64,000 bases of DNA from an uncultured Chitinophagales bacterium. GTDB taxonomy: Bacteria > Bacteroidota > Rhodothermia > Balneolales > CAYWCV01. Positions 9,719-64,000 of the stretch are shown here, in pieces. Under the pieces are notes generated by a model. That model was given only the letters and a program-made list of their open reading frames with translations. It was not told where the DNA came from and searched no databases. The stretch's first letter is position 1; each line of letters begins with the position of its first letter. A program made the position numbers and the translations under genes. The stretch spans positions 4,524 through 68,523 of the forward strand of contig CAZVRJ010000008.1 of NCBI GenBank assembly GCA_964629885.1, in the 5' to 3' direction.

Positions 9719-9894
9719 TCGCGTGGAATTATACTAATATTCTGTGCTGTTATTTCATAAGTAAAATAGCGTACATCTGATTCAAATCAAGAGAGTAGAC
9801 ATTCATTTTTGTAACCATTTTGTTGCTGCCCGGATAAAAGCCCGGATTTTGTTAACTTTGACGTTCTGTAAGCACTAACACAATTCTATTTTTT

Positions 9895-10182
9895 ATGTCG
9901 GTCACAAAAGAAGATGTGGCGTACATCGCCAACCTTGCTCGCCTCCAACCCGATGAGGCCCAGACAGAAACCTTGATGCGCGACATGAATCGCATCTTAA
10001 GCTACATGGAGCAGCTCAATAAAGTCGACACATCCGAAGTGGCGCCGCTCGACCACGTCATTGAAATTCCTCCCGATTATCGTAAAGATGTCGCACTTCC
10101 ACCTCTCGACCACGACAAGGCACTGTCGAATGCACCCGATGCCGACAGCGACTACTTCCGTGTACCAAAGGTAATCGAGTAA
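9895..10182 (+). CDS. gatC: Asp-tRNA(Asn)/Glu-tRNA(Gln) amidotransferase subunit C
   Basis: 95 aa with the typical GatC N-terminus (EDVAYIANLARLQPDEAQ...L.YMEQLNKVDTSEV). Confidence 0.9.
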   Translation: MSVTKEDVAYIANLARLQPDEAQTETLMRDMNRILSYMEQLNKVDTSEVAPLDHVIEIPPDYRKDVALPPLDHDKALSNAPDADSDYFRVPKVIE

Positions 10183-10187
10183 TACGT

Positions 10188-12713
10188 ATGTCAAGAGCAA
10201 GAACAAGTGCAAGTGCCAGAGCAACTGCAAGTGGAACTGTAGGCAACTCGGCCGAGAAACGACCCCTTTTTGATCCCTGGGAAAATATCCCCGATGTGGC
10301 CAAACACGCAGTCTGCTTGGTTGTGCTGATATTGCTTCCGACATTCTTGTTTCCTGATGTTTTTTGGGGAGACAGCCGGTTTGTCGCCCACGACACCATA
10401 CAGTGGCGCGCTTCTGCCGAATCCATTATTGCCGAGCGCAATGCAACTGGCGAAGAGCCCCTATGGGCTGCCAATCAGTTTTCGGGTATGCCCGCTTACT
10501 TGGTGTCCTACAAGAAAAGCGTGCCCAACATCGACAACATCTTGACAATACCCGAGACGCTCTACCCTGCCAGCTTCTTTTGGATACTGATTATCGGGAT
10601 GTACCTCTTTTTGATAAGGCTGGGATTTAGGCCGGCCTCATCGTTGCTTGGTGCAATTCTAGCTGGCTTTTCTACGTATTTACCCATCATTGTTGGAGCG
10701 GGGCACAACTCGAAGTTTGTGGCTCTCAGCTTTATCCCCTGGGTTATGCTTGGATATGCCATGTTGCGCGACCAGGATCGCAACAAATGGCTGGCCGCAT
10801 TTGTGTTTACCGGGGCTTTCATTCTGCAACTCAGGGCAGGACATCCACAGATCACCTATTATTTTATGTGGCTTTTGGGGATCTGGTTCCTTTACGATGC
10901 TTTCAAAGCTTGGAAGGATGGAAACCTGAAGCCATTTGCCGGCGTGGCTATGCTCGTCGTTTTGTCTGGTGTTGTTACCTTGATCGCCAACGCCCAGCCC
11001 TATTGGAGCATCTACGAATATTCGCCCTTCAGCATCCGCGGCGGCGGTGGGGCTGACTCGCCCGGCGGCGCAGGCCTCGATATGGAGTACGCATTCAGAT
11101 GGTCGCAAGGTTGGGGCGAATTGATCACCTTGTTGATTCCGAATGCCTTTGGTGGATCGGCCGCCTACTGGGGGCCCAAATCTGGCACGAGTGGGCCACA
11201 CTACTACGGCGCCATCACCATGGTCTTTTTGTTAATCGGGCTATGGAAATCCGATTTCAAGCTCAAGTGGGTATTCTTTGGCGCCGGAGCCATCACCATG
11301 TTGTTCTCTTTGGGTGAGAATTTCATGGCCTTGAACACCTTCATGTTCAACTACTTCCCACTTTTCAACAAGTTCCGAGCCCCTGAAACCTGGCTTGTGG
11401 TCGCAGGATTCTGCTTCCCTGTTGTGGCCGTTGCAGGTATTGAGTACTTGGCGAAAAAATCTGGGGAGTTAAAGAAGTCAGACTGGTTACCAGCGATGAT
11501 TCCGGTCGCAGTAATTGCCATTGTGGCTGCTTTGGGAAGTGGAACCGTGCTCTCATTCGAAAAGCCAGGTCAGGCAGAACAGTTTATTGAACAACTTGCT
11601 TCAGCCAACCAACTGAGCCCAAGCGACCCCAGAGTACAGCAGCAGGTGAACGATTTTATTGAGACGAATCTCAAACCTGAACGCAAAGCCCTTGCGGAGA
11701 GAGATGGTTTACGGTTTTTGATTATCGTGACCCTTTCGATTGCCGTGTTGATAGGCTTGGCTTTCAGAAAGCTTAGTGCGGGTCCAGCAACATTGATCCT
11801 CGTGCTCATTGCCGGATATGATGTACTCACAGTGGGCCAGCGTTACGCCAACGAAAACAGCATGGCGCCAAAAGATTTTGATGCCCAGCGAACTATTGAG
11901 CAGACACGACGTCCACTCGACACCTGGCTGGCCGAAAATGTTAAAACTGCCGAGCCCTGGTCTTACCGCGTTTTCCCATTGAGCGATAACCCATTCAATA
12001 ACGCACTGCCTTCCTATTTTTATCCATCGTTGGGTGGTTATAGCGGTGCACGCATGGCCATGTACGACGACATTATGTCGCGATCGATTTTCGTCGGCGA
12101 TTTTGGTCTGAACATTGGGCTGATGAATATGCTCAACACCAAATACATCACCTATGGGGCCGAGCTGGAGCTACCGGGTTTTGATCCAGTGCATGAAGTT
12201 GATGGAGTTGTAGTTTACGAAAACACATACGTACTCCCTAAAGCGTGGTTTGTGGATCGAGCAGACGTAGTGTTGAGTAAAGAGAACGCATTGGCACGCA
12301 TCAATCAGTTTACATTCGATCCATCGCGTGAAGCGGTTGTCGAATATGATCGCCTTCTGCCAAACCTTACTGCCGATAGTACCGCCAGTGCAACCGTGAC
12401 CTCGTACTCTGCTCGGCAGATCGACGTACAAGTAAGCCGCACCTCAGGAAGCGGATTGTTGGTGTTGGGTGAACTTTACTACCCAAGAGGCTGGACCGCC
12501 ACTGTCGACGGCGAACCAACCGAAATCTTAAAGACCAATTTTGCGATTCGTGGTGTGGTAGTTCCAGAGGGATCTCATATGGTATCGTTCACATTTGAGC
12601 CAAGTTCGCATTCATCAGGTACGACAATTGCCTGGGTTGGCCACCTTGCTTGGCTGCTGATGGGCGGCATTGCCCTCATGTTCCACCTGCGGAATCCCCG
12701 CAAGCCCGAGTGA
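10188..12713 (+). CDS. YfhO-family polytopic membrane protein (putative glycan/lipid-linked glycosyltransferase)
   Basis: 841 aa with many TM helices across the N-terminal approximately 550 aa and a soluble C-terminal domain plus a final TM, as in YfhO. The start is uncertain: ATG 10188 includes the repeat, while GTG 10296 (MAKHAVCLVVLILL) would leave the repeat intergenic. Confidence 0.75.
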   Translation: MSRARTSASARATASGTVGNSAEKRPLFDPWENIPDVAKHAVCLVVLILLPTFLFPDVFWGDSRFVAHDTIQWRASAESIIAERNATGEEPLWAANQFSGMPAYLVSYKKSVPNIDNILTIPETLYPASFFWILIIGMYLFLIRLGFRPASSLLGAILAGFSTYLPIIVGAGHNSKFVALSFIPWVMLGYAMLRDQDRNKWLAAFVFTGAFILQLRAGHPQITYYFMWLLGIWFLYDAFKAWKDGNLKPFAGVAMLVVLSGVVTLIANAQPYWSIYEYSPFSIRGGGGADSPGGAGLDMEYAFRWSQGWGELITLLIPNAFGGSAAYWGPKSGTSGPHYYGAITMVFLLIGLWKSDFKLKWVFFGAGAITMLFSLGENFMALNTFMFNYFPLFNKFRAPETWLVVAGFCFPVVAVAGIEYLAKKSGELKKSDWLPAMIPVAVIAIVAALGSGTVLSFEKPGQAEQFIEQLASANQLSPSDPRVQQQVNDFIETNLKPERKALAERDGLRFLIIVTLSIAVLIGLAFRKLSAGPATLILVLIAGYDVLTVGQRYANENSMAPKDFDAQRTIEQTRRPLDTWLAENVKTAEPWSYRVFPLSDNPFNNALPSYFYPSLGGYSGARMAMYDDIMSRSIFVGDFGLNIGLMNMLNTKYITYGAELELPGFDPVHEVDGVVVYENTYVLPKAWFVDRADVVLSKENALARINQFTFDPSREAVVEYDRLLPNLTADSTASATVTSYSARQIDVQVSRTSGSGLLVLGELYYPRGWTATVDGEPTEILKTNFAIRGVVVPEGSHMVSFTFEPSSHSSGTTIAWVGHLAWLLMGGIALMFHLRNPRKPE
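10192..10239. repeat. Hexanucleotide tandem array (CAAGAG CAAGAA CAAGTG CAAGTG CCAGAG CAACTG CAAGTG GAACTG)
   Basis: Read directly. Eight units start 4 nt after ATG 10188. In the YfhO ORF frame they translate as RARTSASARATASGT. Confidence 0.9.
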
Positions 12714-38600: not shown

Positions 38601-40672
38601 AAGAAGGCGTGGCTGAGGTGTCGGCCGTTGAAGATGCACGCAACTATTTGAATACGAAAATCAGCTCTGGCGAACTCGTGTTGCCCGATGGAGTTCGTTA
38701 TGTTTTCTCAGGCAGCTACGAAAACCAAGTAAGGGCTGAGAAGCGGCTTGCGTTCGTCATACCGTTATGTTTGATCTTGATTGTACTGATCCTCTATTTC
38801 CAGTTTAGGTCGGTCGGAACCGCCATGATGATTTTCACGGCCATTGCAATGGCGTTCTCGGGAGGTTTCATCATGGTGTGGCTATATGCCCAGCCATGGT
38901 TCCTTGATTTCAACATATTCGGCACGGAGATGAGGACTTTGTTCCAGATATCGCCCGTCAACTTGAGTGTTGCCGTTTGGGTTGGATTCATCGCCCTTTT
39001 CGGCATTGCCACCGACGATGGTGTGGTGATGGCTACCTACCTTGACCAGACTTTTGCTTCAAGGGTCACAAATACCACAGAGGAAATACGCGCTGCTGTA
39101 CTAGAGGCCGGGCTTAAGCGAATTCGTCCATGTCTTATGACCACTGCCACCACTCTGTTAGCTCTGCTTCCAGTACTTACATCGAGTGGACGCGGTGCCG
39201 ATATTATGATCCCGATGGCGATTCCTGCATTCGGGGGGATGACCGTCGCATTGATCACGCTTTTTGTGGTGCCTGTTCTGTACAGCTGGAAAGCGGAGAG
39301 AACAGCAGGTGCAACTGCAAGATCAGGAGCAACTGCAAGAGCAGGAGCAGGAACGGCATCGATAGGCGAAAAAGATGGTGAAACTAAGGGCGGTGGCAAA
39401 CCACCATTCTTGTCGTTGCTCTTGTTCTTGCCGTTGCTCTTGTTCTTGCTCTCGCCATTGTTCTTGTTCTCGAATCAAGCTAGTGCACAATCACTGCCGT
39501 CATCTCTATGGCAGAAGGCGGTTGAGAATAACCCTCGACTGGAGATATACCGTCAGAATCTTGTATCCCAAGAGGCTCTGAAACGGTCGGTGGGAGCTTG
39601 GCCCAATCTTGAGATCGAGGCCGGCGTGTTAGTCCGCCCGATGGAACTGATGATGGGCGATCAAAGGTTCAGCTTTTCCGTGATGCAGATGCTGCCACGG
39701 ACGGCTGAATTTAAGTACCAACGCGAGGAGATCGATGCCATGTCGGGCGCTGAGCAGGCACTGCTCGATGAGACCTTGCGAATGATTCGCCGCGAGTTGA
39801 CCGAAGCTTGGATCGAACGCGTCGCACTCGAACATGAGATGAACCTCATGGATGATGCCCTCGAGATAATGAACCAGATGCAGTCGGCTGTCCGCGACCG
39901 GGTTTCCACAACAGCAAGCAATTCCGATTGGATTCGTATCGAGATGCGCATCCTCGAAATGGAAGATGTTCACGCTGCCATGGAAGACAAGATCGAAGCG
40001 CTGAACCAGAAGATATGGAGCCTCACAGGCGACAAGCAGCGATCATCCATCCCAATTGCCGATAGTCTTTCGATAGCCAGCTATCGCTTTGCAAGGCAAG
40101 TGCCTGATTTCAGCGACCATCCTGCCGTTCGCATGTTCGATTTCGAGGCCAATGCTGCGATAGCGCGTGCAAGGATGACGGAATCGATGCTGCGCCCGAT
40201 GTTTGGGATTGGCGTACAGTACACTCCTATCAAACCGAGGGAGTCTATGGGTGAGCGAACAAGTGGTGGCGATATGATTATGCCAATGTTCACCTTAAGC
40301 GTGCCGACATCTCGCGATAAGGTAAGAGCGCTATCGGAGGCATCGCGATCAGAGTCGCTCAGTATCCAGCGGGCTAAAGAAGACAAAATAGCTGAGCTTC
40401 AAATTCAGTGGGCCAAAGCCATATCAGAGCTCCAGCAAGCCGAGCGCAACCTCATCACAGCCAGTCGACAAAGAGCATTGTCGAAGGAATTGTACGATAA
40501 CGAGCTTGTTCAATTCCAAACCGGAATGGGTAACCTCGACATGCTGCTCGACATCCAAGAGAGTTGGGTCGGGTATCGCATGAAATCGCTCGAAGCAACC
40601 ATGCGTCAGCGAATGGCCTTCGCCATGCTAGAAGAACTTCAACCTTCCATTACAGGGAGCACAAACCAATGA
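35675..40672 (+). CDS. CusA/CzcA-family heavy-metal RND efflux pump, continuous in frame with a TolC-like outer-membrane factor (1665-aa ORF)
   Basis: The first approximately 1205 aa have RND topology (12 TM helices, two large periplasmic loops, HME-type sequence). No stop codon occurs before the OMF-like C-terminal approximately 395 aa. The junction is made of hexamer repeats. Confidence 0.8.
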   Translation: MLQSIIRFFLDQKLVTVLFAGLLIAWGLSTAPFKWDVPFLPSDPVPVDAIPDIGENQQIVYTEWMGRSPQDVEDQITYPLTSTLLGLPGVKSIRSTSMFGFSSIYVIFEDNVDYYWSRTRILEKINALPADLLPTSVQPRLGPDATALGQVYWYTLEVLDQDGNLVQGVWDLHELRSIQDFQVKPALNATPGVSEVASVGGYVMEYQVDLDPSSLRLYNISVMDVMNAIRASNQDVGANTLEINQVEYLVRGLGYIRSVADLEESVITERNNVPIRIADVGRVNIGPAPRGERGILDRDGVEVTGGVVVARYGDNPMQVIEALKERIALLEPGLPQRTLEDGRTVKVSIVPFYDRSVLIRETLGTLNDAISLQILITIIVILVMVRNLRASIMISVILPIAVLMTFILMRYFSVDANIVALSGIAIAIGTLVDLGIILSENVLRHKDEASEGEPLRDIIYRASVEVAPAILTAVSTTIVSFLPVFTLQAAEGKLFTPLAWTKTFALVAAVVITLTMLPALAHALLGMRIKRGESGAKSQAGPIERYGLWLAVVVVSIFLTAAWLPLGVQVGLLVNLLFVALILAIVLGGFYLFLKYYPTLLAWCLENKLKFLSIPAVIILFGAMIWLGFPRVFGFVAKAGDSVGMNVRVTAPWSFMAHSFPGLGKEFMPSLDEGAFLLMPTVMPHAGVEISREYLSRLDRLVTAIPEVETVVGKAGRAESALDPAPLSMFENVILYKPEFKTDADGRKLRFKIDDEGNFVTDDRGELIPDNRGQYYRQWRDHIRTPDDIWQEIVTATTLPGITSAPKLQPIETRLVMLQTGMRAPMGIKVYGPDLETIEAFSIELEAQLKEVPSLKEASVFAERSVGKPYLEIKLDRPAMARYGIMVAEVQEVIEVAVGGMPLTTTVEGRERYNIRARFARDFRDSPESLEGILIPTMMGSQIPLGQIAEITYRRGPMMIRGEDTFLTGYVLFDRQEGVAEVSAVEDARNYLNTKISSGELVLPDGVRYVFSGSYENQVRAEKRLAFVIPLCLILIVLILYFQFRSVGTAMMIFTAIAMAFSGGFIMVWLYAQPWFLDFNIFGTEMRTLFQISPVNLSVAVWVGFIALFGIATDDGVVMATYLDQTFASRVTNTTEEIRAAVLEAGLKRIRPCLMTTATTLLALLPVLTSSGRGADIMIPMAIPAFGGMTVALITLFVVPVLYSWKAERTAGATARSGATARAGAGTASIGEKDGETKGGGKPPFLSLLLFLPLLLFLLSPLFLFSNQASAQSLPSSLWQKAVENNPRLEIYRQNLVSQEALKRSVGAWPNLEIEAGVLVRPMELMMGDQRFSFSVMQMLPRTAEFKYQREEIDAMSGAEQALLDETLRMIRRELTEAWIERVALEHEMNLMDDALEIMNQMQSAVRDRVSTTASNSDWIRIEMRILEMEDVHAAMEDKIEALNQKIWSLTGDKQRSSIPIADSLSIASYRFARQVPDFSDHPAVRMFDFEANAAIARARMTESMLRPMFGIGVQYTPIKPRESMGERTSGGDMIMPMFTLSVPTSRDKVRALSEASRSESLSIQRAKEDKIAELQIQWAKAISELQQAERNLITASRQRALSKELYDNELVQFQTGMGNLDMLLDIQESWVGYRMKSLEATMRQRMAFAMLEELQPSITGSTNQ
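39305..39352. repeat. Hexamer array, purine-rich orientation (GCAGGT GCAACT GCAAGA TCAGGA GCAACT GCAAGA GCAGGA GCAGGA), with 18-nt super-period
   Basis: Read directly. It translates as AGATARSGATARAGAG in the long ORF. Confidence 0.9.
39407..39472. repeat. Hexamer array, complementary orientation (11 x NNCTTG: TTCTTG TCGTTG CTCTTG TTCTTG CCGTTG CTCTTG TTCTTG CTCTCG CCATTG TTCTTG TTCTCG)
   Basis: Read directly. It translates as FLSLLLFLPLLLFLLSPLFLFS. An 18-nt unit (TCGTTGCTCTTGTTCTTG) is repeated with one mismatch. Confidence 0.9.
39410..40672 (+). CDS. TolC-family outer-membrane efflux factor module (possible separate gene with TTG start inside the repeat)
   Basis: After the hydrophobic stretch and an ASA-Q cleavage-like site, the sequence QSLPSSLWQKAVENNPRLE... 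resembles the N-terminus of mature OMFs. The approximately 395-aa size fits TolC-like proteins. No ATG or GTG is available in frame, so the start is speculative. Confidence 0.45.
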   Translation: MSLLLFLPLLLFLLSPLFLFSNQASAQSLPSSLWQKAVENNPRLEIYRQNLVSQEALKRSVGAWPNLEIEAGVLVRPMELMMGDQRFSFSVMQMLPRTAEFKYQREEIDAMSGAEQALLDETLRMIRRELTEAWIERVALEHEMNLMDDALEIMNQMQSAVRDRVSTTASNSDWIRIEMRILEMEDVHAAMEDKIEALNQKIWSLTGDKQRSSIPIADSLSIASYRFARQVPDFSDHPAVRMFDFEANAAIARARMTESMLRPMFGIGVQYTPIKPRESMGERTSGGDMIMPMFTLSVPTSRDKVRALSEASRSESLSIQRAKEDKIAELQIQWAKAISELQQAERNLITASRQRALSKELYDNELVQFQTGMGNLDMLLDIQESWVGYRMKSLEATMRQRMAFAMLEELQPSITGSTNQ

Positions 40673-55406: not shown

Positions 55407-56159
55407 TTAGGTTGTTTTCGTCTTGCCTAGCGACTTGCCACCCTCCGTGTCGGAACCTTCTGTTTCTTTGTCGAGAAGCGGTTTGGTGGTCTCAGTCTCC
55501 GTGTTCATTTCAAGCTTGAACTGCTTCACGAGCTCACTGGCGCGCAAACGCTCGGCATCCACTTCGATCTCCATAGTCTTGGTATCGATGCTATCGAGGG
55601 CAATCTCCATGCGAGCTTCGTTCTTGGCGGTCTGCTCGTTGATGCGATTGAGCATCTCATCGTGAGTCTGATCCATACCGCCAACCTCAAATTGCTCGAG
55701 CGTGTCGGCAATCTTGGCCTGCCAAGCAGCGCGCTCGCTCGCACGAAGGGCCTCACGAGCCTCACGGATTTTACGATCTTTCTCACGCATGAAAATCTTC
55801 TTGACTTGGATCGCCTTTTCGTAAGCTTTCTTGGCGAAATCAAGCTGCTCAGATATGGAACCAAGTTGCTCCCTGCTCTTCTCGAGCTGCAATGCGTAGG
55901 TTTCTGCAATGTCGTCCCTGCCGGCATTGATGGCGCTCTTGATCTTGCTGGTAAGCTCAGTTATGCTCTTGGTGTACTTGTCGTGCTCCTTTTGCAGAAG
56001 AATCACGTTTGCACGAACAGTCGCGATGTTTTCGTTCATCCGCGGAACCTGATCGTTCAGTTCGCGAATGTTCTGCTCAAGAATAAGTTTGGGATCTTCG
56101 ATGCTGCTTACTAATCCACCAAAGAGGGATTTTAATGCACGAACAAATCGTTTCCACAT
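55407..56159 (-). CDS. PspA/IM30 (Vipp1) family protein
   Basis: 250 aa. The N-terminus MWKRFVRALKSLFGGLVSSIEDPKLILEQNIRELNDQV is typical of PspA, with coiled coil throughout. Confidence 0.85.
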   Translation of the reverse strand: MWKRFVRALKSLFGGLVSSIEDPKLILEQNIRELNDQVPRMNENIATVRANVILLQKEHDKYTKSITELTSKIKSAINAGRDDIAETYALQLEKSREQLGSISEQLDFAKKAYEKAIQVKKIFMREKDRKIREAREALRASERAAWQAKIADTLEQFEVGGMDQTHDEMLNRINEQTAKNEARMEIALDSIDTKTMEIEVDAERLRASELVKQFKLEMNTETETTKPLLDKETEGSDTEGGKSLGKTKTT

Positions 56160-56345: not shown

Positions 56346-57500
56346 TCAAAAATCCCTGAAAAGATCTAAAAGCGGCCAAGCTGAAGATGGAAAGATTTGG
56401 CGGCTTGTGTCCCGATACTCATCGCGATACGGTAGTTTCGTGCGCAGGTGCCGAAATTCCCGAAGCCTTTCTTCTGAAGTAGGGAGCTTGATGCTAGCTC
56501 TGAGACTCCGGTCGTGGTCTAAGAAATCATCAATTAATCGACTTGGCAATAGTTCGCCACCAATGTCCAAAATTTCGTCAATAGAAGGCTTTGGGGTTAC
56601 ATCCGTGTAGAGTTTTGGTCGAACGACATCATCTGGCATTGACGTTTTTCCACTTTCCAAGCTCATCATCATGTGTGCTACTGCCAACTCAGTTGCCTGC
56701 CGTTTTGATCTGTTCGAATATCCGGCAATGTGCGGTGTTCCGACGATGGACATTTCGAGCAGTGTTTCATTGACTGCGGGCTCGTGTTGCCACACATCAA
56801 TGATTGCATCGTCCAGATAGCCTCCGTTTAATGCCGAGATAACGGCATCCTCGTCGGCCACACCACCCCTTGACGCTTGGATGAGTAATGTGCGGTGTCT
56901 AGAGAATAGCTTATTAGAGTCCAGCCATCCTTTGGTCACCCACTTTCCGGTCTCGGTGAGCGGTGTGTGAAGCGTCAAAATCTCGCAATCTAAAACGTCG
57001 TCGAGTGTCGCAGTATAAAAGTCTGGCTCTCTGAGAGAACGGGGTGGGTCGTAGGTCACTACTTGGATCCCTAGTTCATGGGCCAGATTGGCAACGGCAG
57101 TTCCAACGAAACCAACACCAACAATGCCAAGCCTCTTGTCAGCAAATCTCCATCCCCTCTTTTGTGCTGTGTAGATTGCTGTTGTAAGGACGTACTCCGC
57201 CACAGCTTGGGCATTGCAACCGGCAGCAGAACCGACGGCAATTCCTTTCTCGCTCAGCCATGGAATGTCAATGTGGTCATATCCGGCGCTTGCCGTGCCA
57301 ACCCATTTCAGATTCTGGGTTTCTCGTAGAGATTTGGCATTCACTTTTGTGACGGTACGCACCAAGAGCGCATCGCAATCACCTGCATCGGTGGGTAATC
57401 CTAGGTCTGGATCGAATGTTGAAAGCTCTATCGTGTCGGGAATCGACTCCCTAAGTAGATAAATGTGCTTGTCTGCCAGCAGCCGGAATGTCGGTTTCAT
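56346..57500 (-). CDS. pdxB: 4-phosphoerythronate dehydrogenase
   Basis: 384 aa, co-linear by eye with E. coli PdxB (ALLVRTVTKVN; GTASAGYDHID; GIVGVGFVG; HTPL; HIAGYS) and with a C-terminal dimerisation region. Confidence 0.9.
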   Translation of the reverse strand: MKPTFRLLADKHIYLLRESIPDTIELSTFDPDLGLPTDAGDCDALLVRTVTKVNAKSLRETQNLKWVGTASAGYDHIDIPWLSEKGIAVGSAAGCNAQAVAEYVLTTAIYTAQKRGWRFADKRLGIVGVGFVGTAVANLAHELGIQVVTYDPPRSLREPDFYTATLDDVLDCEILTLHTPLTETGKWVTKGWLDSNKLFSRHRTLLIQASRGGVADEDAVISALNGGYLDDAIIDVWQHEPAVNETLLEMSIVGTPHIAGYSNRSKRQATELAVAHMMMSLESGKTSMPDDVVRPKLYTDVTPKPSIDEILDIGGELLPSRLIDDFLDHDRSLRASIKLPTSEERLREFRHLRTKLPYRDEYRDTSRQIFPSSAWPLLDLFRDF

Positions 57501-58000
57501 CCAACTCTTTTACGACGTCTGAGTGCCATTGGTTTATCTAACAACTCACTGACGATGATGGCTTGACGCAGAGCTCCAGGCTGGCGCAAAGCCAATGCAG
57601 TAGGGGAAGGTGGCTTTACCTTCTTTACCATTAATAAATCCTCAATATCCCATCTTTCCTTCTTGTCGGCATCCTTCTTAGCCTGTTTGCGTTTCTTGGC
57701 CATCATTGGATCCACGTACTCGCTGTCGGCCCTGTGCGTTTGTGGCTTCGGCTGACCGACTAGGTCGCTTAAGTCACCGCTCAATATTCTTCCCAAGACG
57801 TCAAGCGCTGATGGCTGCGTATTTTTAGATGGGGCCGATTCTACTTCATCAAGCTCTCTCTCAAGCACTTCGGCTGGGATGTAGTCCAATTCCTCGCCTT
57901 GTTTTTTAGGCGCATTTTGCTTGTTCTTGTTTCGCTGACCGGCCAACAAAGAAAAAAGGCCAATTGCGATGGCTATGACGATGGTTAAGAGATCATCCAT
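57497..58000 (-). CDS. Hypothetical single-pass membrane protein, Lys/Glu-rich
   Basis: 167 aa with N-terminal TM IVIAIAIGLFSLLAG. It overlaps the pdxB start by 4 nt (ATGA). No motif was recognised. Confidence 0.55.
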   Translation of the reverse strand: MDDLLTIVIAIAIGLFSLLAGQRNKNKQNAPKKQGEELDYIPAEVLERELDEVESAPSKNTQPSALDVLGRILSGDLSDLVGQPKPQTHRADSEYVDPMMAKKRKQAKKDADKKERWDIEDLLMVKKVKPPSPTALALRQPGALRQAIIVSELLDKPMALRRRKRVG

Positions 58001-58020: not shown

Positions 58021-60273
58021 TTATCTCCAGTACTTGATGTTTACCGTTTGCCCCTGGGAGTTCTTGACTTCGAGATTAAGTACTGCACCCCCACCTGCAT
58101 CAAAGTGGCAGATTTTGATCGGATGCAATCCATACTCAAACGCAAGTCTCACCGATTTAGTTGCGGCACTGTGTAGTCCGTCGTTGTCGATCTCCACAAG
58201 CCCGTCGACCCAAAGTATGGAACCATCGTCAGACGTCAAAGAGATAGTGTAAACACCATCGAACGGAATTTCCATATAACCCGTCAATATCTGAGCATAA
58301 GGCCCAGTAACTCCTTCGGGCAGTGCAGGTACATCTAATGTGCTGGTTTGATGTGTCAACTCAGGGTTGAGGGCAGAGCATCGGCTTATTGATACGGGAT
58401 ATAATTTTCTATCCAACCCGGGCGTTTGCCCAGACCGCTGAAGACCGGGGATCATTTGGAGGTGTTTCACCTCTAGTTCACGCACATCCGATCTGCGTCC
58501 TGTCGACGTGACCGACACGACCCTTACAGTTGCCATGGCGCCATCCATTAGCGGAATTCGTTGACTGATGGATGGATGGCAGTAGGCGTCTTCGCTTGGA
58601 TCAGTGCCATCGAGGGTATATTGCAGACATCCGCCAAAATGCGCGGCTTCGAGTTGCACCACAGCTTCGTCGGCCAGTGTTTGGATCGGAGAAAAACCGA
58701 TCGGGTCGGGGATTCGGTAGTTTACATTAAACTGATCAAGCATTTGGTACCGAGGACGCACTCGTCTCTGAAAGTCTGCGAAATCACGCTGGTGCTCTGG
58801 CGACCACACCCGTTCTGCGAGTGCCATCATGCGCGGAAAGGCCATGTATTCAACGTGATCGGCCGTTTTCATGTACTCGGTCCACATATTCGCTTGGGCA
58901 CCCATTACATGATGCCTGCGCGATGGATCCAACGATTCTGGTATTGGATCATAGGCATACACTTTCTCGATTGGACTAAACCCGCCAATTGCCAACGGCT
59001 CCTTGCTGGGCTCGGCTTGATAGTGATCAAAATAAAGTGCAAAGCCAGGCGACATGACAACATTGTGTCCATGGCTAGCTGCCTCAATACCACCAGCCTC
59101 GCCACGCCACGACATGACAGCTGCGTTCGGTGCAAGGCCACCTTCGAGGATTTCGTCCCAACCGATGAGCAGTCGGTCGCGGTTATTCAGGAATTTCTCG
59201 ATCCTTCGGATGAACCAACTTTGAAGCTCGTCTTCGTCTTTGAGTCCTTCACGTTTCATGATAGCCTGCGCCTCGTCCGACTCTCTCCACCTTCGTTTGG
59301 GCACTTCGTCGCCACCGATATGGATGTATCTGGATGGGAACAAATTGAGCACCTCGTCGAGTACCGTTTCCAAAAACTCGAATGTGTTTTCTGTTGGGCA
59401 AAATACATCTTCGAAGACACCCCATGTGGTAGCCACTTCAAAAGGTCCTGGGGTACAAGCAAACTCTGGATATGCCGCCAAGGCTGCCAAAGCATGACCG
59501 GGCATCTCAATTTCGGGTACGACCGTGATGTGACGCTCAGCTGCGTAGGCAACAACCTCACGAATTTCATCTTGGGTGTAGAAACCACCATGTGAAATTC
59601 CATCACCAATGTATGGATTGAAATTCTTAGCCACCATCGTTTCCTTGCGCCATGCACCAATCTCTGTCAATTTTGGATAGGCCTTAATTTCGATGCGCCA
59701 TCCTTGGTCTTCGGTAAGGTGCCAATGGAAGGTGTTCATTTTGAAGCGGGACATCAAATCGATGTATTTTTTCACAAATTCGACTGATCTGAAATGGCGA
59801 GCTACATCCAAATGCATCCCTCTCCACCTAAACCTCGGATAGTCTTCGATGCGGGCGTGTGTCAGTTGTGGTTGTTGTCCCGCCGAAATGAGCTGCACAA
59901 ATGTTTGTGTGCCGTAAAAGACTCCGGCTGGATCTCCAGCTATGGTCACACCTGAATCGTAGGCGTCGAGGGTGTAATACTCTGATTTGCCAGTGCTCGG
60001 CGAAATTACAAGGCGAACAAAAGCCGAGCCAGGGTCATTAACGATCGAAGATTCAACGCCGTGAATCAGCATGAGTGATTCGACCAAGAGCTCTGCAGCT
60101 GGTCGTAAAGATTGATCGGCTACATATATACCCAAGTTACCCCGAAGCATGCTGGTGGTGCCATCCGATTGCACCGATACTGGCATTGGCACCAGGGCTG
60201 GAGATTGTGGTTGTGCCACGCATGCAGCTGTGGATACAAAAAAAAGAATCCATGAAAGAAGTTGCCTTTTCAT
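58021..60273 (-). CDS. GH20 beta-N-acetylhexosaminidase with C-terminal PA14-like domain
   Basis: Signal peptide. GH20 catalytic region (FHWHLTEDQGWR; YIHIGGDEV). The C-terminal approximately 140 aa match a PA14 pattern (GYMEIPFDGVYTISLTSDDGSILWVDG). Confidence 0.9.
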   Translation of the reverse strand: MKRQLLSWILFFVSTAACVAQPQSPALVPMPVSVQSDGTTSMLRGNLGIYVADQSLRPAAELLVESLMLIHGVESSIVNDPGSAFVRLVISPSTGKSEYYTLDAYDSGVTIAGDPAGVFYGTQTFVQLISAGQQPQLTHARIEDYPRFRWRGMHLDVARHFRSVEFVKKYIDLMSRFKMNTFHWHLTEDQGWRIEIKAYPKLTEIGAWRKETMVAKNFNPYIGDGISHGGFYTQDEIREVVAYAAERHITVVPEIEMPGHALAALAAYPEFACTPGPFEVATTWGVFEDVFCPTENTFEFLETVLDEVLNLFPSRYIHIGGDEVPKRRWRESDEAQAIMKREGLKDEDELQSWFIRRIEKFLNNRDRLLIGWDEILEGGLAPNAAVMSWRGEAGGIEAASHGHNVVMSPGFALYFDHYQAEPSKEPLAIGGFSPIEKVYAYDPIPESLDPSRRHHVMGAQANMWTEYMKTADHVEYMAFPRMMALAERVWSPEHQRDFADFQRRVRPRYQMLDQFNVNYRIPDPIGFSPIQTLADEAVVQLEAAHFGGCLQYTLDGTDPSEDAYCHPSISQRIPLMDGAMATVRVVSVTSTGRRSDVRELEVKHLQMIPGLQRSGQTPGLDRKLYPVSISRCSALNPELTHQTSTLDVPALPEGVTGPYAQILTGYMEIPFDGVYTISLTSDDGSILWVDGLVEIDNDGLHSAATKSVRLAFEYGLHPIKICHFDAGGGAVLNLEVKNSQGQTVNIKYWR

Positions 60274-60343: not shown

Positions 60344-60769
60344 TTATTCTACCTTTTTGGCCTCGGCTACTTTGCTTACTTTCTTGCCTGAGAGTATGAA
60401 CGGCATGCTAAGAGCGGTGAGTACCCCCACCATCATCACGAACTCGACAATAAGGTAGTACGGATTCCGTGCGAAAAACTCAATCAGCATGATGAGCCTT
60501 GAAAAGAAGAGAATCAGGTAGAGCATGAAGAACCCCAGCACAAATCCGAGTGTATGAGCAGGCGACATTCCGAGTATACCGCCCTCGCGTTGACTCAGTC
60601 GTGAGAAATAGACTGGGATTCCAAGCATCACCGTTGTGTAGACGATGCTCAACATAAAACCACCAAGGTCAAATGCACGTTCAAGAATAAAAGAAAGAAC
60701 CAACTGTTTACCGACGATGATGACTAAACCTCCAACTAGGCAGAGACGAATCAAATTGGACAGACTCAT
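60344..60769 (-). CDS. Small 4-TM membrane protein, paralog 1 of a three-member local family
   Basis: 141 aa. Shares F..Y(L/I)(L/I)LF..RL.....(F/Y)(F/Y)A.......(V/L)EF....... P(F/V) with the ORFs at 60829..61281 and 62225..62716. Confidence 0.7.
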   Translation of the reverse strand: MSLSNLIRLCLVGGLVIIVGKQLVLSFILERAFDLGGFMLSIVYTTVMLGIPVYFSRLSQREGGILGMSPAHTLGFVLGFFMLYLILFFSRLIMLIEFFARNPYYLIVEFVMMVGVLTALSMPFILSGKKVSKVAEAKKVE

Positions 60770-60828
60770 TAAGTCTCCAGGGTGTGAGTGTGAAAATTAA
60801 AAAAAATGCAGACATGCTGATTATCACA

Positions 60829-61281
60829 TCAAGTTTCTTTCGCAGTATCATCGTAATCGTCGTCATCAAAGTTGATCTTCCTAATGATGAAGGGTATGAA
60901 CAGGAAGATTGCAACGATGGCGATGATAGGAAACTCGAGCATCAACAGGAACGGCTTTTCGGCGTACATGTCGATGAAGATGATCAGTCGCATTACAAAG
61001 AGCAGGAGATAGAGCGCGAAAACGCTCATAGCTATCGGAACCGTGTAGAACTCAACCTTGGGTTGTTGCTTCCTCTCGACGAATTTACTTATAGTCTTGT
61101 TTTCGGTACTTTTCCAATATCCGATGGCTAATATTGTACCAAATACAAGTGCTAAAAAAGTGTCTCTAATATTCGATTCAATAGCATCGTCAACTGAAAA
61201 ATTGGTAAATATGAAGTGTTTTATCAATAGAATGATAAGACAACAAACATAAATCCCGACAACAACAAGCTTGCGTTGCAT
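60829..61281 (-). CDS. Small 4-TM membrane protein, paralog 2 (acidic C-terminal tail)
   Basis: 150 aa. ALYLLLFVMRLIIFIDMYAEKPFLLMLEF aligns with the other two paralogs. Tail is NFDDDDYDD. Confidence 0.7.
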   Translation of the reverse strand: MQRKLVVVGIYVCCLIILLIKHFIFTNFSVDDAIESNIRDTFLALVFGTILAIGYWKSTENKTISKFVERKQQPKVEFYTVPIAMSVFALYLLLFVMRLIIFIDMYAEKPFLLMLEFPIIAIVAIFLFIPFIIRKINFDDDDYDDTAKET

Positions 61282-61308
61282 ACATGGTTGTGCTGAGGGA
61301 GCTAGTTA

Positions 61309-62094
61309 TTAACCAACCTCGATTACATCAGTCGTGCATTTTTCAACGCAGCTCCAGAGGTAGCCAAGTTCAATTGAGTATTGGATGGCATATACTCCTG
61401 CAGATAGGATCACGCAAGTCTGAGCAAATGCACCTGTGAGTCCACATCCACCGAGCGCGGCGGCCAAAAGCACGGATGCAAAAGTTGACTGAACCACGAA
61501 ATTCTCGTAGCAGATCAAATTGCATGGGTTCGTGTCGTTAATACCGTTTTCAGCGATGTGCTTTGCAACGAGTGCGCCAAAGGTTTGGTCTACGAACGCT
61601 TTGATCTCTGCTTCGCTCTTACCCACGAGGCTTGGGTTTTCTTCAAGAACCATGTCGCCAATCGCCATCATTTTGTAGAAAAATTCCTGACCAAGCGGAT
61701 TCTTGGCTGCGACCGATTTCATCATGATGTCAAGATCGGATGAGCCAAGGTCGGTCCGGTTGAATCGAGCATTAGCTGAGGCATTGCTTTTGGCGCGCAG
61801 TGACGCGTTAGAGCTGTTTGTAAACTTCTGAAATTCTTCAACTTGAAGCTTGAACTCGCGGGATTTCGCTTGAGCTTCCCTTGCTTTGACGTCGTTCAGA
61901 ATCGACTCAAACATTTCGCCAGAAGTACTAAATTGAGTCGAAACCTTAGCGGCTTTGTCGAGGAAAGACTCGTTGTCGATTGGTGGTTCTGGAGTATTAA
62001 CCATCTCGGAACACGCTGGCAGCATGAGCCCGACGATAAGCAACCAAGCCGTAAGCTTGGCGAAAGATGTCTTGTGGAAGTTGGTGATTGACAT
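61309..62094 (-). CDS. Lipoprotein with helical N-terminal region and Cys-rich hydrophobic C-terminal domain, unknown family
   Basis: 261 aa. Signal plus LMLPAC lipobox. The last approximately 75 aa contain 6 Cys (CNLIC, GGCG, QTC, SC, EKC) and the Gly/Ala-rich hydrophobic stretch SVLLAAALGGCGLTGAFAQTCVILSAGVYAI. Confidence 0.7.
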   Translation of the reverse strand: MSITNFHKTSFAKLTAWLLIVGLMLPACSEMVNTPEPPIDNESFLDKAAKVSTQFSTSGEMFESILNDVKAREAQAKSREFKLQVEEFQKFTNSSNASLRAKSNASANARFNRTDLGSSDLDIMMKSVAAKNPLGQEFFYKMMAIGDMVLEENPSLVGKSEAEIKAFVDQTFGALVAKHIAENGINDTNPCNLICYENFVVQSTFASVLLAAALGGCGLTGAFAQTCVILSAGVYAIQYSIELGYLWSCVEKCTTDVIEVG

Positions 62095-62224
62095 GTTACC
62101 TCGGATGTTAGTTTATGAAGTCGCTGCTGGACATCAAGCTCTGACTATAATCATTATTTTTGTTATAGCCAAATTTTGGTTGATTTTTACGGTTGTGCAC
62201 CATAGTGTTAGTGGATCTGACCAA

Positions 62225-62716
62225 TTATGCCTCAACCTCTTGTTGATTACCATGTTTGAATACTGGGTACACAAGTGCAACAAGAATGAGGGCCATAAAT
62301 AAAAACTCGAGTGTAAGCATGGTCGAGTTACCGGCATAGTACTCCATCATCATAAACAGTCTGGCTATGAACAGGAGTATGTAGAACATGAATACCGTAA
62401 AGGCTATCGCAAATCCCAACATTCGGGATGGAGCAGCCTTAACCTTCACCGTATCCGCTTTTTTGACGAAATAGATAGGAATTGAAATCATACAAACCGT
62501 CAGCACTAAGTTGATGATTGCATGCACAAGGTCAAGACTCCAGCCGTCGACTCCCGAAAGGACGTAGTATTTGGCAGCGATGGTTATAAAAGCCACCACC
62601 ACTAACACAATCGCCAAGTTTTTTCGAATAGTCTGCACTTGCAATAAGTTCCGCGTGAGTTGGTTGACCGAATTCCGTTCTATACCGCCGACACTTACAT
62701 TAGAGTATCTTAACAA
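62225..62716 (-). CDS. Small 4-TM membrane protein, paralog 3
   Basis: 163 aa. FMFYILLFIARLFMMMEYYAGNSTMLTLEF aligns with paralogs 1 and 2. The TTG start at 62716 is uncertain. Confidence 0.65.
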   Translation of the reverse strand: MLRYSNVSVGGIERNSVNQLTRNLLQVQTIRKNLAIVLVVVAFITIAAKYYVLSGVDGWSLDLVHAIINLVLTVCMISIPIYFVKKADTVKVKAAPSRMLGFAIAFTVFMFYILLFIARLFMMMEYYAGNSTMLTLEFLFMALILVALVYPVFKHGNQQEVEA

Positions 62717-63057
62717 TTTTTATCGAAAAATAAAAATTTTCCAATAATTAATCGTTTGATGGCTCAATAATACACTGCAATCCACACATATTATATCACA
62801 TTTTCAGCAAAAACGCCTTTATATCGATTTAATTGTTATAAAATTTTAAGATTAGGACTATGTTTGTTCGTAATCTTGTCTTTTTCTAATATAGCCACAC
62901 CTCAAATTGCACAACACCAATTATTTATAATTCAATGATTTCAGTGCTTTAGGTGCTTCAGCTACATTTTTCAAAGCAGTTTTCAACTTGATTACATGCC
63001 GAAAATGTGCGTACTTAGGAGTCAAAGTTCACGATCATCGAATGAGTTACATACTAT

Positions 63058-64000
63058 ATGCAAAAGAATGGCCTTGGGGTCTTCGAATTGACCGATCGGC
63101 TACGTAGAGCCGCTTACATCGAAAAATTATCCATTAAGCACGACTCTGGATGGTTCATCTCTGCTCCTGCCTATGAAGTAAAGCACAAGCTTGGATATCA
63201 TGCATGGAATCATGCAGAGCACGTTCGTTGGATCAAGGACCGGCTCATGTTTTTGCGTGGTGGCAAATCGGAGGTTAACGTCGATCCCTCCCTGGCTGCT
63301 TGGGTCGATGCAGCTTTACATGCACCCGACCAGTGGTCCTATATAAGAGGTCAATATCTGGGTGTAAAGAGTGCCTTGCTGAGTTTTTACCGAGAGAGTC
63401 TCAGCTTGGCCGATCCGAGCGCCAATGCTGCCGACCGTTCATTGTTCAAACGACTCATTCCTGAAATTGAGGAGCAGATAGCATGGGCCGAGGAAATTCT
63501 GGAGTTGGATCCAAATCCGACAGCTTCAAAAGGATGGACTAGGGATCTGATCGACATCCTCGACCATATCGGTGGAATAACGTGTGCAAATGCCCGACCG
63601 GTTGGAGAACTTGAGCTACCAGCGCATAGTTTTCGGTTGTCAGACGAAATTCTATTCGACGACCGAATCGCCAACACAGCGCTCATGCCTCACGAGGAAA
63701 AACTCAAGCTACCGCACAGAGAGGCCGTTATCGAGCAGTTTCGCATTTTTTTCAATGAGGCATACGCTGCAGCCATGGCAGCCAGTGTTGTGTTTGAGGC
63801 CTACGAAAAGAACATGGACTTCAATTTCATCCATGATTTCACCCGGCAGTTTTGGGATGAAGTCCGTCATTCCGAATTCGGTGCTGTTCGATTAAAGGAA
63901 CTTGGCGAGGAGCCAGACCGCGTTAACCAAATTCTGTATAAATACAGTATGTCGATGCCCTTACTTCATCGTGTGGCATATTTGACGATGATGCTCGAGC
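63058..64000 (+). CDS. Partial ORF (5' portion, runs off the window), ferritin-like / DUF455-like protein
   Basis: This ORF is not in the supplied track because it has no stop. Hand translation from ATG 63058 is open for 314 codons (MQKNGLGVFELTDRL...FFNEAYAAAMAASVVFEAY...FTRQFWDEVRHSEFGAVRLKELG). It follows a TGA at 63043-63045. An ExxH motif suggests a di-iron ferritin-like fold. Confidence 0.7.
   Translation, partial: MQKNGLGVFELTDRLRRAAYIEKLSIKHDSGWFISAPAYEVKHKLGYHAWNHAEHVRWIKDRLMFLRGGKSEVNVDPSLAAWVDAALHAPDQWSYIRGQYLGVKSALLSFYRESLSLADPSANAADRSLFKRLIPEIEEQIAWAEEILELDPNPTASKGWTRDLIDILDHIGGITCANARPVGELELPAHSFRLSDEILFDDRIANTALMPHEEKLKLPHREAVIEQFRIFFNEAYAAAMAASVVFEAYEKNMDFNFIHDFTRQFWDEVRHSEFGAVRLKELGEEPDRVNQILYKYSMSMPLLHRVAYLTMMLE

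Follow-up and report, generated by a model that had tools for sequence, protein, structure and literature searches.

Pore-forming colicins carry a hydrophobic hairpin within a helical bundle (PMC2585860). The halocin C8 precursor ProC8 is a protein of 283 amino acids, of which the C-terminal 76 form the toxin, and its HalI immunity domain is N-terminal (bioRxiv 10.64898/2026.07.27.741052). The immunity proteins of membrane ionophore toxins are very hydrophobic, membrane-localised, and highly polymorphic (PMC11630599). The subject of this analysis is a 64-kb stretch of DNA from an uncultured Chitinophagales bacterium (hereafter the window) and, within it, a cluster of four genes, P3-LP-P2-P1, which encode three small paralogous membrane proteins and a Cys-rich, probably membrane-tethered protein (LP). 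The reading that we favour, at a probability of roughly 45%, is that the four products form a lineage-specific inner-membrane hetero-oligomer, with a predicted topology, predicted disulfides, a putative physical association, a presumed co-transcription, and a proposed role in the envelope. The open reading frame (ORF) list gives the cluster as four co-oriented ORFs on the minus strand, in the following order:

62225..62638, minus strand: P3, a paralog of 137 amino acids with four transmembrane (TM) segments and a GTG start
61309..62094, minus strand: LP, 261 amino acids, consisting of an N-terminal signal or anchor, a predicted periplasmic all-helical domain, and a hydrophobic C-terminal hairpin apparently stapled by Cys residues
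60829..61281, minus strand: P2, a four-TM paralog of 150 amino acids whose loop 2 is rich in Lys and whose C-terminal tail is acidic
60344..60769, minus strand: P1, a four-TM paralog of 141 amino acids with a Lys-rich C-terminal tail, intact in the window

The genes are separated by 130 nucleotides (nt; P3-LP), 27 nt (LP-P2), and 59 nt (P2-P1), and a GH20 gene starts 70 nt after P1. With the family profile, exactly three paralogs and one LP were found in the window. The set of three paralogs and LP described in a first-pass annotation of this DNA was confirmed, the four genes by their ORFs and the paralogy by BLASTP and shuffle z-scores. The length of 163 amino acids given there for P3, from a TTG at 62716, proved to be an artefact of the ORF caller. 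P3 orthologues are 136–137 amino acids long and have a GTG/ATG start as in P3, a start that is kept in the upstream alignment, and the 26 extra codons of the TTG-start form sit in an intergenic block whose DNA is conserved and contains indels. Orthologue lengths and the indel-bearing block therefore place the start of P3 at GTG 62638.

Judged by sequence comparison, the paralogy of P1, P2, and P3 is far above chance. BLASTP returned E-values of 2e-19 for P3-P1 (33% identity over 129 amino acids), 2e-9 for P2-P1, and 4e-8 for P3-P2, and the corresponding Smith–Waterman z-scores were 21, 12, and 10 standard deviations (1000 composition-preserving shuffles). P1 is the nearest paralog of P3, and P2 is the fastest-evolving member of the cluster. 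The hydropathy profile of each paralog has four TM-like segments, with Kyte–Doolittle (KD) values of 2.1–2.8; in P2, only three windows rise above the threshold, TM2 being weaker. The paralogs share no conserved Cys. An internal 2+2 duplication inside the paralogs was considered and found to be unsupported (hhalign local P=0.018 over 16 columns). The conserved signature noticed earlier in the third and fourth TM segments is indeed present in the TM3-loop-TM4 region, at residues 82-112 of P3, 87-117 of P2, and 80-110 of P1:

62303..62395, minus strand: P3 signature VFMFYILLFIARLFMMMEYYAGNSTMLTLEF, with R93, E99, and E111
60931..61023, minus strand: P2 signature VFALYLLLFVMRLIIFIDMYAEKPFLLMLEF, with R98, D104, and E116
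60440..60532, minus strand: P1 signature FFMLYLILFFSRLIMLIEFFARNPYYLIVEF, with R91, E97, and E109

In P1 numbering, the residues invariant in 20 family members include K21, Y84, L87, F88, R91, L92, A100, L106, E109, F110, L120, and P123, and position 97 is acidic in all 20. With averages of +2.0 and +4.6 Lys/Arg, the N-terminus and loop 2 are basic; loop 1 is acidic (+0.3/-2.2). By the positive-inside rule, the same topology is predicted for all 20 members, with both the N- and the C-terminus in the cytoplasm (N-in/C-in). With this topology, K21, R91, D/E97, and E109 would lie in the periplasmic half of the membrane.

LP has no sequence relationship to the paralogs that would place it among them; its two ends deserve separate mention:

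62011..62094, minus strand: LP residues 1-28, which form a signal peptide or a TM anchor and close with L-P-A-C (Cys28), a non-canonical lipobox
61312..61530, minus strand: LP residues 189-261, the hairpin, with C191-x3-C195 ... C217-x9-C227 ... C249-x3-C253 and a hydrophobic tip at about residues 205-237

Relatives of LP fall into 11 orthologue clusters with 43–100% identity. Residues 1-28 are the best-conserved segment of the protein, with a mean column conservation of 0.93, against 0.72–0.75 for the helical domain and 0.83 for the hairpin; they share 54% identity with the orthologue whose identity over the whole protein is 43%. Such a peak, read from the alignment, is unusual for a cleaved signal. 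The invariant residues of the N-terminus are S2, F6, K13, A16, W17, L19, I20, G22, L25, P26, and C28, and the signal features, namely a Lys-containing n-region, an h-region of 12 residues, and Cys28, are invariant as well. Pro occupies position -2 in both lineages of the family (LPAC/LPSC), which falls outside the canonical [LVI][ASTVI][GAS]C; the other lipobox-like N-termini in the window read LASC, VAAC, and TAAC. A twin-arginine motif is absent (N-terminus MSITNFHKTSFAKLTAW...). LP is therefore best described as a probable lipoprotein, and its best-conserved part, together with the non-canonical lipobox, suggests that it may retain the N-terminal segment as a membrane anchor. The Cys-rich lipoprotein of the first-pass annotation stands as far as the Cys residues are concerned (seven, with six among the final 71 residues); its lipidation is only probable on account of the Pro at -2.

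The AlphaFold2 (AF2) model of LP (11 orthologues) is wholly helical, with a predicted local distance difference test score (pLDDT) of 74 and a predicted template modelling score (pTM) of 0.74; residues 1-39 are of low confidence. Its helices span residues 44-183 and are followed by a long hairpin of residues 190-216 and 222-260. The strictly hydrophobic stretches of the hairpin (about FASVLLAAALGG and AFAQTCVILSAGVYAI) comprise 12–16 residues, many of them small (A/G/S/T), and their KD hydropathy is 1.5–1.8. Short stretches, small residues, and a hydropathy below that of the paralog TM segments suggest that the hairpin tip is embedded in half of the membrane or in protein rather than crossing the bilayer as two full TM spans. 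At about residues 205-221 (61440-61490), the internal 'LLAAALGGCG' resembles a second lipobox, and L-A/G-G/A-C occurs there in all orthologues. A signal-plus-lipobox model, LptM, matches this stretch at E 0.013–0.47, which was regarded as a chance match, probably compositional.

The six Cys residues at the C-terminal end are invariant in the 11 orthologues. Their nested order in an antiparallel hairpin suggests that two pairs, C191/C253 and C195/C249, meet at the base and a third, C217/C227, at the turn, and three such disulfides would imply a periplasmic location of the hairpin. The same residues can be read as a thiol relay, in which the C-x3-C pairs on the periplasmic side and C217/C227 at the tip would bind and transfer a thiophilic metal or pass reducing equivalents across or along the membrane and the paralogs would serve as scaffold or channel, loosely like MerT/MerF or CcdA/DsbD. 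The conservation of six Cys across 43%-identical orthologues, at both ends of a hydrophobic hairpin, would suit a relay, as would the invariant intramembrane charged residues of the paralogs, and an N-P-C motif in LP presumably recalls the Pro-Cys motifs of thiol transporters. However, no Mer, CcdA/DsbD, thioredoxin-like, metallochaperone, or reductase protein was found in the operon or by any profile, the paralogs are without conserved Cys, and the nested C-x3-C ... C-x9-C ... C-x3-C spacing is what would be expected of structural disulfides stapling an antiparallel hairpin. A thiol relay is thus highly improbable.

Neither family could be connected to anything described. Searches of Pfam, NCBIfam, PADLOC, and PHROGs gave nothing above threshold for the four proteins or for the N- and C-terminal domains of LP taken separately, and PADLOC returned 0 families for all four at E<=1. 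The known small four-TM families (SMR, GtrA, DoxX, MAPEG, MARVEL, FtsK_4TM, and others) did not match above their curated thresholds, and NCBIfam added none. FtsK_4TM matched P1 alone, with an E-value of 0.0048 and a score of 17 bits, which is below the cut-off of 23.1, and was set aside as chance; the other Pfam matches had E>0.04. Profile searches of PDB sequences yielded no match to either family. In Foldseek, the LP model reached a best E-value of 0.9 in PDB and 0.36 in BFVD, with no colicin among the PDB top 50; the single-chain model of a paralog was poor (pTM 0.34), and its Foldseek matches, with E>6, are meaningless. Colicins, halocin C8 (TIGR04449), saposins, and any toxin or immunity family were without a Pfam/NCBIfam match at E<=10, and in NCBIfam, TIGR04449 was missed at this level both by full LP and by residues 183-261 alone. 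The statement of the first-pass annotation that none of the four belongs to a recognisable family holds in Pfam, NCBIfam, PADLOC, PHROGs, PDB sequences, and Foldseek. On these sequence and model searches, the four-gene set belongs to no known family or fold and has no detectable relatives or analogues.

The family is also narrowly distributed. Among 5.8 billion clustered proteins, relatives occur in 15 clusters for P1 and 11 for LP. The three-paralog profile gave 31 matches, every one with E<1e-29 and none weaker, and an exhaustive HMMER search with the paralog profile against 1.84 billion representatives found eight proteins, all of them cluster members. LP is present in 2 of 185,579 GTDB species representatives, both of which are metagenome-assembled genomes (MAGs) labelled 'uncultured Chitinophagales bacterium', and all recovered contigs with the cluster are from uncultured Chitinophagales. 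Wherever family members are present, they occur solely within the P3-LP-P2-P1 gene set. At 50 other metagenome loci with GH20 homologues (39–56% identity), the cluster is absent upstream; close relatives are not in that collection. One JGI protein, P0042, is a fragment of a P2 orthologue (124 amino acids) that carries the source name 'cobalamin synthase', which its sequence does not support.

The gene order is fixed. In every contig covering the locus, the arrangement is DUF455 (divergent), then P3-LP-P2-P1-GH20-167aa-PdxB-like-PspA, and all 11 contigs that span the four positions have P3-LP-P2-P1 between DUF455 and GH20. The contigs fall into two lineages, A (the window, L001, L006, L058, L059, L063, and L069-L071) and B (L004 and the 81-kb L064). 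Between these, the identity amounts to 90–91% for Meth_synt_2, 87–90% for PspA, 85–87% for DUF455, 80–82% for h288, 61–72% for GH20, 46–48% for the PdxB-like protein, and 32–39% for the 167/171-aa protein; within the cluster, it is 46–49% for P1, 43–44% for LP, 33–37% for P3, and 28–34% for P2. In a neighbour-joining (NJ) tree, the paralogs group by gene position with bootstraps of 71/100/100, which implies that the triplication predates the split of lineages A and B and that each copy was retained. The ratio of nonsynonymous (dN) to synonymous (dS) divergence, where dS was measurable, is 0.03–0.08 for LP, 0.04–0.13 for P3, 0.04–0.18 for P2, and 0.05–0.11 for P1, so the four genes are real and constrained.

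These data bear on the simplest alternative, namely that the genes have no joint function and encode independent, weakly constrained small membrane proteins, redundant in the case of the paralogs, which inherited gene order holds together. Synteny of the whole neighbourhood does extend over more than 20 kb in the clade, beyond the cluster alone, and is thus not specific to it; divergence is rapid, and P1 can be lost (see below). However, the gaps are short (27–130 nt) and lack terminator-like sites, all three paralog lineages have been kept since before the A/B split, a dN/dS of 0.03–0.18 does not amount to weak constraint, and wherever the family was found, its members belonged to precisely this gene set. 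The absence of any joint function is accordingly very unlikely.

Base composition does not point to a separate origin. The stretch is AT-richer than its surroundings, as the first-pass annotation had noted by eye (GC content 0.39–0.45 versus 0.49); its composition is not foreign, however, since GC content at third codon positions (GC3) is 0.50–0.54 in the four genes and 0.49–0.61 in the neighbouring genes, which is equal. The dip stems from proteins rich in Phe, Ile, Leu, and Met and from an AT-rich intergenic region of 419 nt, so it is no sign of foreign DNA. IMG/VR, PLSDB, and GenBank phages contained no relatives of the cluster. With native GC3, syntenic flanks, and no relatives in mobile elements, horizontal acquisition was rejected.

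The first-pass annotation had left a choice between a toxin/immunity system and a new envelope module, and it had counted universal conservation in the lineage as evidence against the former. On the toxin/immunity reading, LP would be a membrane-active toxin and P1-P3 inner-membrane immunity proteins that bind its hairpin in the producer. LP would act as a secreted or lipid-tethered, bacteriocin-like protein whose C-terminal hairpin of about 72 amino acids inserts into the cytoplasmic membrane of competing cells and permeabilises it, perhaps once a protease has freed the hairpin, as with halocin C8. The design of LP, in which a hydrophobic and Cys-rich hairpin forms the C-terminal end after a helical domain, recalls colicins and halocin C8, and the family is tiny and restricted to one lineage. 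Natural variation at the locus provides further points for this reading, the first of which is the loss of P1 in one sublineage of lineage A, where the gene is a pseudogene in four samples (L061/L062 and L067/L068). The remnants are orthologous to positions 60344-60769 of the window:

L061, 4423-4580: P1 remnant
L062, 1823-1980: P1 remnant
L067/L068, 6454-6703: P1 remnant

What is left in L061 is some 40 codons that correspond to P1 residues 30-72 (E 9e-14); the start and TM3-TM4 are gone. L068 and L061 are 94.6% identical in DNA and have in common a 3' junction, a deletion that removed TM3-TM4; the remnant in L068 has a longer 5' part, with frameshifts and stop codons, and L061 has lost the 5' end. 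P3, LP, and P2 are intact in this sublineage, and purifying selection persists there on LP (dN/dS 0.08) and P2 (0.15–0.18).

The second point is the presence of deeply diverged LP-P2-P1(-GH20) tracts between close genomes. L064 and L004 are 96% identical in P3, 94% in LP, and 88% in the GH20 N-terminus (dS 0.17–0.48), whereas P2 and P1 are only 58% and 61% identical, that is, about 40% diverged. The diverged tract (L064, 9800-10760; L004, 1320-2290) runs from about LP codon 200 through P2 to about P1 codon 80, and dS is saturated there. Between L061 and L068, dS is 0–0.04 in DUF455, P3, the 167-aa gene, and PdxB, against 0.43 in LP, 0.52 in P2, and 0.25 in GH20; between L058 and L063, it is 0.9–1.3 from P3 to the 167-aa gene (LP 0.54), with flanks at 0.33–0.57. 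It is uniform between L001 and L006. Deep tracts between close genomes imply allele exchange by recombination in the P3...h167 segment, with chimeric metagenome assembly as a caveat.

The mosaic tracts are not limited to the paralogs but take in GH20 and h167. Inside the L064/L004 tract, only 6 of 60 hairpin residues are changed (dS 1.7). Purifying selection is strongest on the hairpin (dN/dS 0.03), which shows no co-variation with P2/P1, the reverse of what co-diversifying cognate toxin and immunity proteins would show. Rather than an array of variable copy number, the paralogs are old orthologous groups fixed in position, and the cluster, with its native GC3, lies at the same chromosomal site in all recovered relatives. 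As set out above, neither a toxin or immunity family at E<=10 nor a Foldseek match was found, and no transporter, lysis, type VI secretion system (T6SS), contact-dependent inhibition (CDI), or type IX secretion system C-terminal domain (T9SS-CTD) delivery element is adjacent. The best-conserved N-terminal anchor also suits a resident membrane protein more than a released toxin. A toxin/immunity system predicts an accessory, variable array, co-variation of toxin and immunity, a means of delivery, and in many cases foreign surroundings; none of these was observed, which weakens this reading, and we consider it unlikely.

A more specific form of it would make LP the founding member of a new bacteriocin class in Bacteroidota, with a membrane-tethered precursor, a triple-disulfide hairpin warhead of about 72 amino acids, and P3/P2/P1 as dedicated immunity proteins, convergent with halocin C8 and saposin-like peptides; this is distinctly unlikely. 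If LP were a bacteriocin, the LP3'-P2-P1 allele tracts and the loss of P1 would be footprints of an ongoing intraspecific arms race, and if it were a toxin at all, Bacteroidota would have in this module a new bacteriocin/immunity class. A secreted protein flanked by several small membrane paralogs that have diverged is nevertheless insufficient to call an immunity array, as synteny, paralog orthology, and dN/dS point elsewhere. Of the two options left by the first-pass annotation, the envelope module has gained support, and the immunity array has lost it: the paralogs are ancient, and the cluster is conserved in place throughout the clade, at the same site in every clade contig covering the locus and in two deep lineages, rather than being accessory.

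The favoured inner-membrane complex can be outlined as follows. P1, P2, and P3 would be its N-in/C-in four-TM subunits, each with a set of invariant charges that would lie in the periplasmic half of the membrane: TM1 contributes a Lys, TM3 an Arg and an Asp/Glu, and TM4 a Glu where it begins. LP would be tethered to the outer face of the inner membrane via its N-terminal lipid or TM anchor. Its hairpin would probably be held shut by three nested disulfides, two at the base (C191-C253 and C195-C249) and one at the tip (C217-C227). The short hydrophobic tip (12–16 residues per helix) would insert into the periplasmic leaflet and dock there on the conserved TM3-loop-TM4 face common to the paralogs. 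The complex would be made from one operon shared with the periplasmic GH20 hexosaminidase, and its role would most likely be envelope upkeep or the handling of membrane-associated substrates, not killing.

Several observations favour such a complex. The gene order is fixed in two lineages in which LP is only 43% identical, the paralogs are ancient and individually retained, and all four genes are under purifying selection. The membrane parts are the best conserved, namely the N-terminal 28 amino acids and the hairpin of LP and the TM3-TM4 signature of the paralogs. The paralogs have a common predicted N-in/C-in topology and a charged periplasmic-leaflet motif each; the hairpin has many small residues, strictly hydrophobic stretches too short for a bilayer, and Cys positioned to pair; and GC3 is native, without relatives in mobile elements. 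The only contextual lead to the role is the constant adjacency to, and probable co-transcription with, a secreted GH20/PA14 hexosaminidase.

Other observations weigh against the complex. P1 is dispensable in one sublineage, which speaks against a four-part machine that is strictly obligate; its loss would be compatible with a complex if P3, its closest paralog, can substitute for it. The deeply diverged tracts resemble a pattern often found at conflict loci. By the alignments, the cluster is among the fast-evolving genes of the region, its proteins being 33–47% identical between lineages and most neighbours 63–91%, and it is not alone in that. We infer the physical association of the subunits, and the single-chain model of a paralog was poor. 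Finally, the operon mates, GH20, the 167-aa TM protein, and the PdxB-like dehydrogenase, form no coherent pathway.

The flanking features of the cluster are as follows:

58021..60273, minus strand: GH20 beta-N-acetylhexosaminidase with a PA14 domain (Pfam), co-oriented, 70 nt downstream of the cluster
57497-58000, minus strand: 167-aa protein that has a single TM helix at its N-terminus and is otherwise rich in Lys and Arg, no Pfam match
56346-57500, minus strand: PdxB-like 2-hydroxyacid dehydrogenase, its start overlapped by 4 nt by the stop of the 167-aa gene
55407-56159, minus strand: PspA/IM30, 4 kb downstream, 95–99% identical within lineage A and 87–90% to lineage B
62639..63057, minus strand: AT-rich intergenic region of 419 nt between the divergent P3 and DUF455 genes (DUF455 starts at 63058 on the plus strand)

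GH20 adjoins the cluster at every locus, lineage B included. No terminator-like sites were found on the minus strand in the gaps of the cluster or in the P1-GH20 gap, and the cluster and GH20 are likely to be co-transcribed; the 167-aa and PdxB-like genes appear to belong to the same transcription unit. In the MAG from NCBI (L001), the GH20 gene (9844-10275 and 10190-11944) is interrupted by a run of N, either masked sequence or a scaffold gap, and the call of 584 amino acids there is an artefact of this interruption rather than a truncated enzyme. PspA is separated from the cluster by three unrelated genes and 186 nt of intergenic DNA and is followed by two conserved proteins of 158 and 289 amino acids with no assigned function.

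The 419-nt region is probably the promoter and 5' untranslated region of the cluster. Upstream of P3, at about 62695-62747 on the minus strand, it holds an AT-rich block, TTATTGGAAAATTTTTATTTTTCGATAAAAATTGTTAAGATACTCTAATGTA, which is strongly conserved and recognisable in lineage B (six loci aligned); this block overlaps the spurious TTG-start extension of P3. A second conserved block, AAGTACGCACATTTTCGGCATGTAATCAAGTTG, lies beside the DUF455 start (62990-63057, minus strand numbering) and is presumably the DUF455 promoter or leader. Rfam gave no riboswitch or RNA leader in the intergenic region at E<=1, the canonical Bacteroidota promoter box TAnnTTTG was not found in the intergenic regions, and a sigma-70 scan did not exceed the shuffle expectation. 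No transporter, lysis, T6SS/CDI, T9SS-CTD delivery, export, or regulator gene adjoins the cluster. In relatives, a T9SS-cargo protein (Por_Secre_tail) of 787–876 amino acids is encoded a few kb upstream (L058, 519-3149; L063, 1576-3939; L064, 2801-5428); L001 has at this position a protein of 783 amino acids without the tail, which marks another variable spot nearby. The largest ORF in the listed part of the window, with 1665 amino acids, is at 35675-40672 on the plus strand.

If the complex exists as proposed, it would be an unseen type of small inner-membrane assembly, made of three diverged four-TM paralogs and a disulfide-stapled hairpin subunit and confined to one uncultured Chitinophagales clade, and the LP hairpin would be a rare bacterial case of a twin C-x3-C stapled helical hairpin at the membrane surface. 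Metagenomes contain many orphan membrane gene sets. The novelty is one of classification, as a set with no detectable relative or analogue, and not of a demonstrated new mechanism; this set stands out by its three ancient paralogs, by a hairpin apparently stapled through twin C-x3-C motifs, by the exceptional conservation of an N-terminal anchor, and by allele exchange specific to the locus.

Against this background, the locus can be compared with the systems it most resembles. Pore-forming colicins (A/E1/Ia) and their immunity proteins of three to four TM segments (Cai, Cei) share with it an all-helical protein with a hydrophobic, Ala/Gly-rich hairpin beside small polytopic inner-membrane proteins, which would encounter the hairpin in the membrane. 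However, sequence and fold do not match, the colicin pore-forming domain being a 10-helix bundle, LP is without a receptor-binding or translocation domain, and no lysis or release gene is near. LP has instead an anchor or lipobox and six apparently structural Cys, three ancient paralogs take the place of one cognate immunity gene, and the cluster sits on the chromosome, is passed on vertically, and occurs in all relatives.

The halocin C8 precursor is similar in size (283 versus 261 amino acids), and in both proteins the last 72–76 residues or so are hydrophobic and Cys-rich and follow a helical N-terminal domain. HalC8 has 10 Cys, compared with the six of the LP hairpin. TIGR04449 was unmatched, the signal of LP is of the Sec/lipobox type and not of the twin-arginine translocation (Tat) type, no halR, halU, or ABC transporter genes are near, and the four-TM proteins of the locus are separate.

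In saposin-like proteins (NK-lysin, amoebapores, saposins), a helical, lipid-interacting module of about 65–75 residues likewise contains six nested Cys, with one pair close to either terminus and a third pair on the two sides of the central turn. Saposin disulfides run C1-C6, C2-C5, and C3-C4, and the nested order of the LP Cys is compatible with that. The spacing in LP is C-x3-C/x21/x9/x21/C-x3-C, whereas that of saposins is C-x2-C/~x27/x10/~x24/C-x5-C. The Pfam families SapB_1 and SapB_2 were unmatched, the AF2 model has two long helices rather than four or five, and the centre of the LP module is far more hydrophobic. The LP module is moreover bacterial and fused to an anchored helical domain.

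CDI ionophore toxins and their CdiI proteins also pair a hydrophobic, helical, membrane-inserting domain with hydrophobic, strain-polymorphic membrane proteins (PMC11630599). The locus has no CdiA/CdiB, VENN motif, or entry domain, and LP is conserved while P2/P1 vary, whereas CDI toxin and immunity proteins co-vary.

Paired SMR proteins (EbrAB) and ArnE/ArnF are, like the paralogs, co-encoded four-TM paralogs of about 110–150 amino acids with conserved intramembrane charges. SMR/EamA profiles were unmatched, and the charges of the present family are Lys in TM1, Arg and Asp/Glu in TM3, and Glu in TM4, not the TM1 Glu of SMR proteins. In place of a pair, the locus encodes three paralogs with one shared predicted orientation, together with an unrelated subunit that carries the Cys hairpin.

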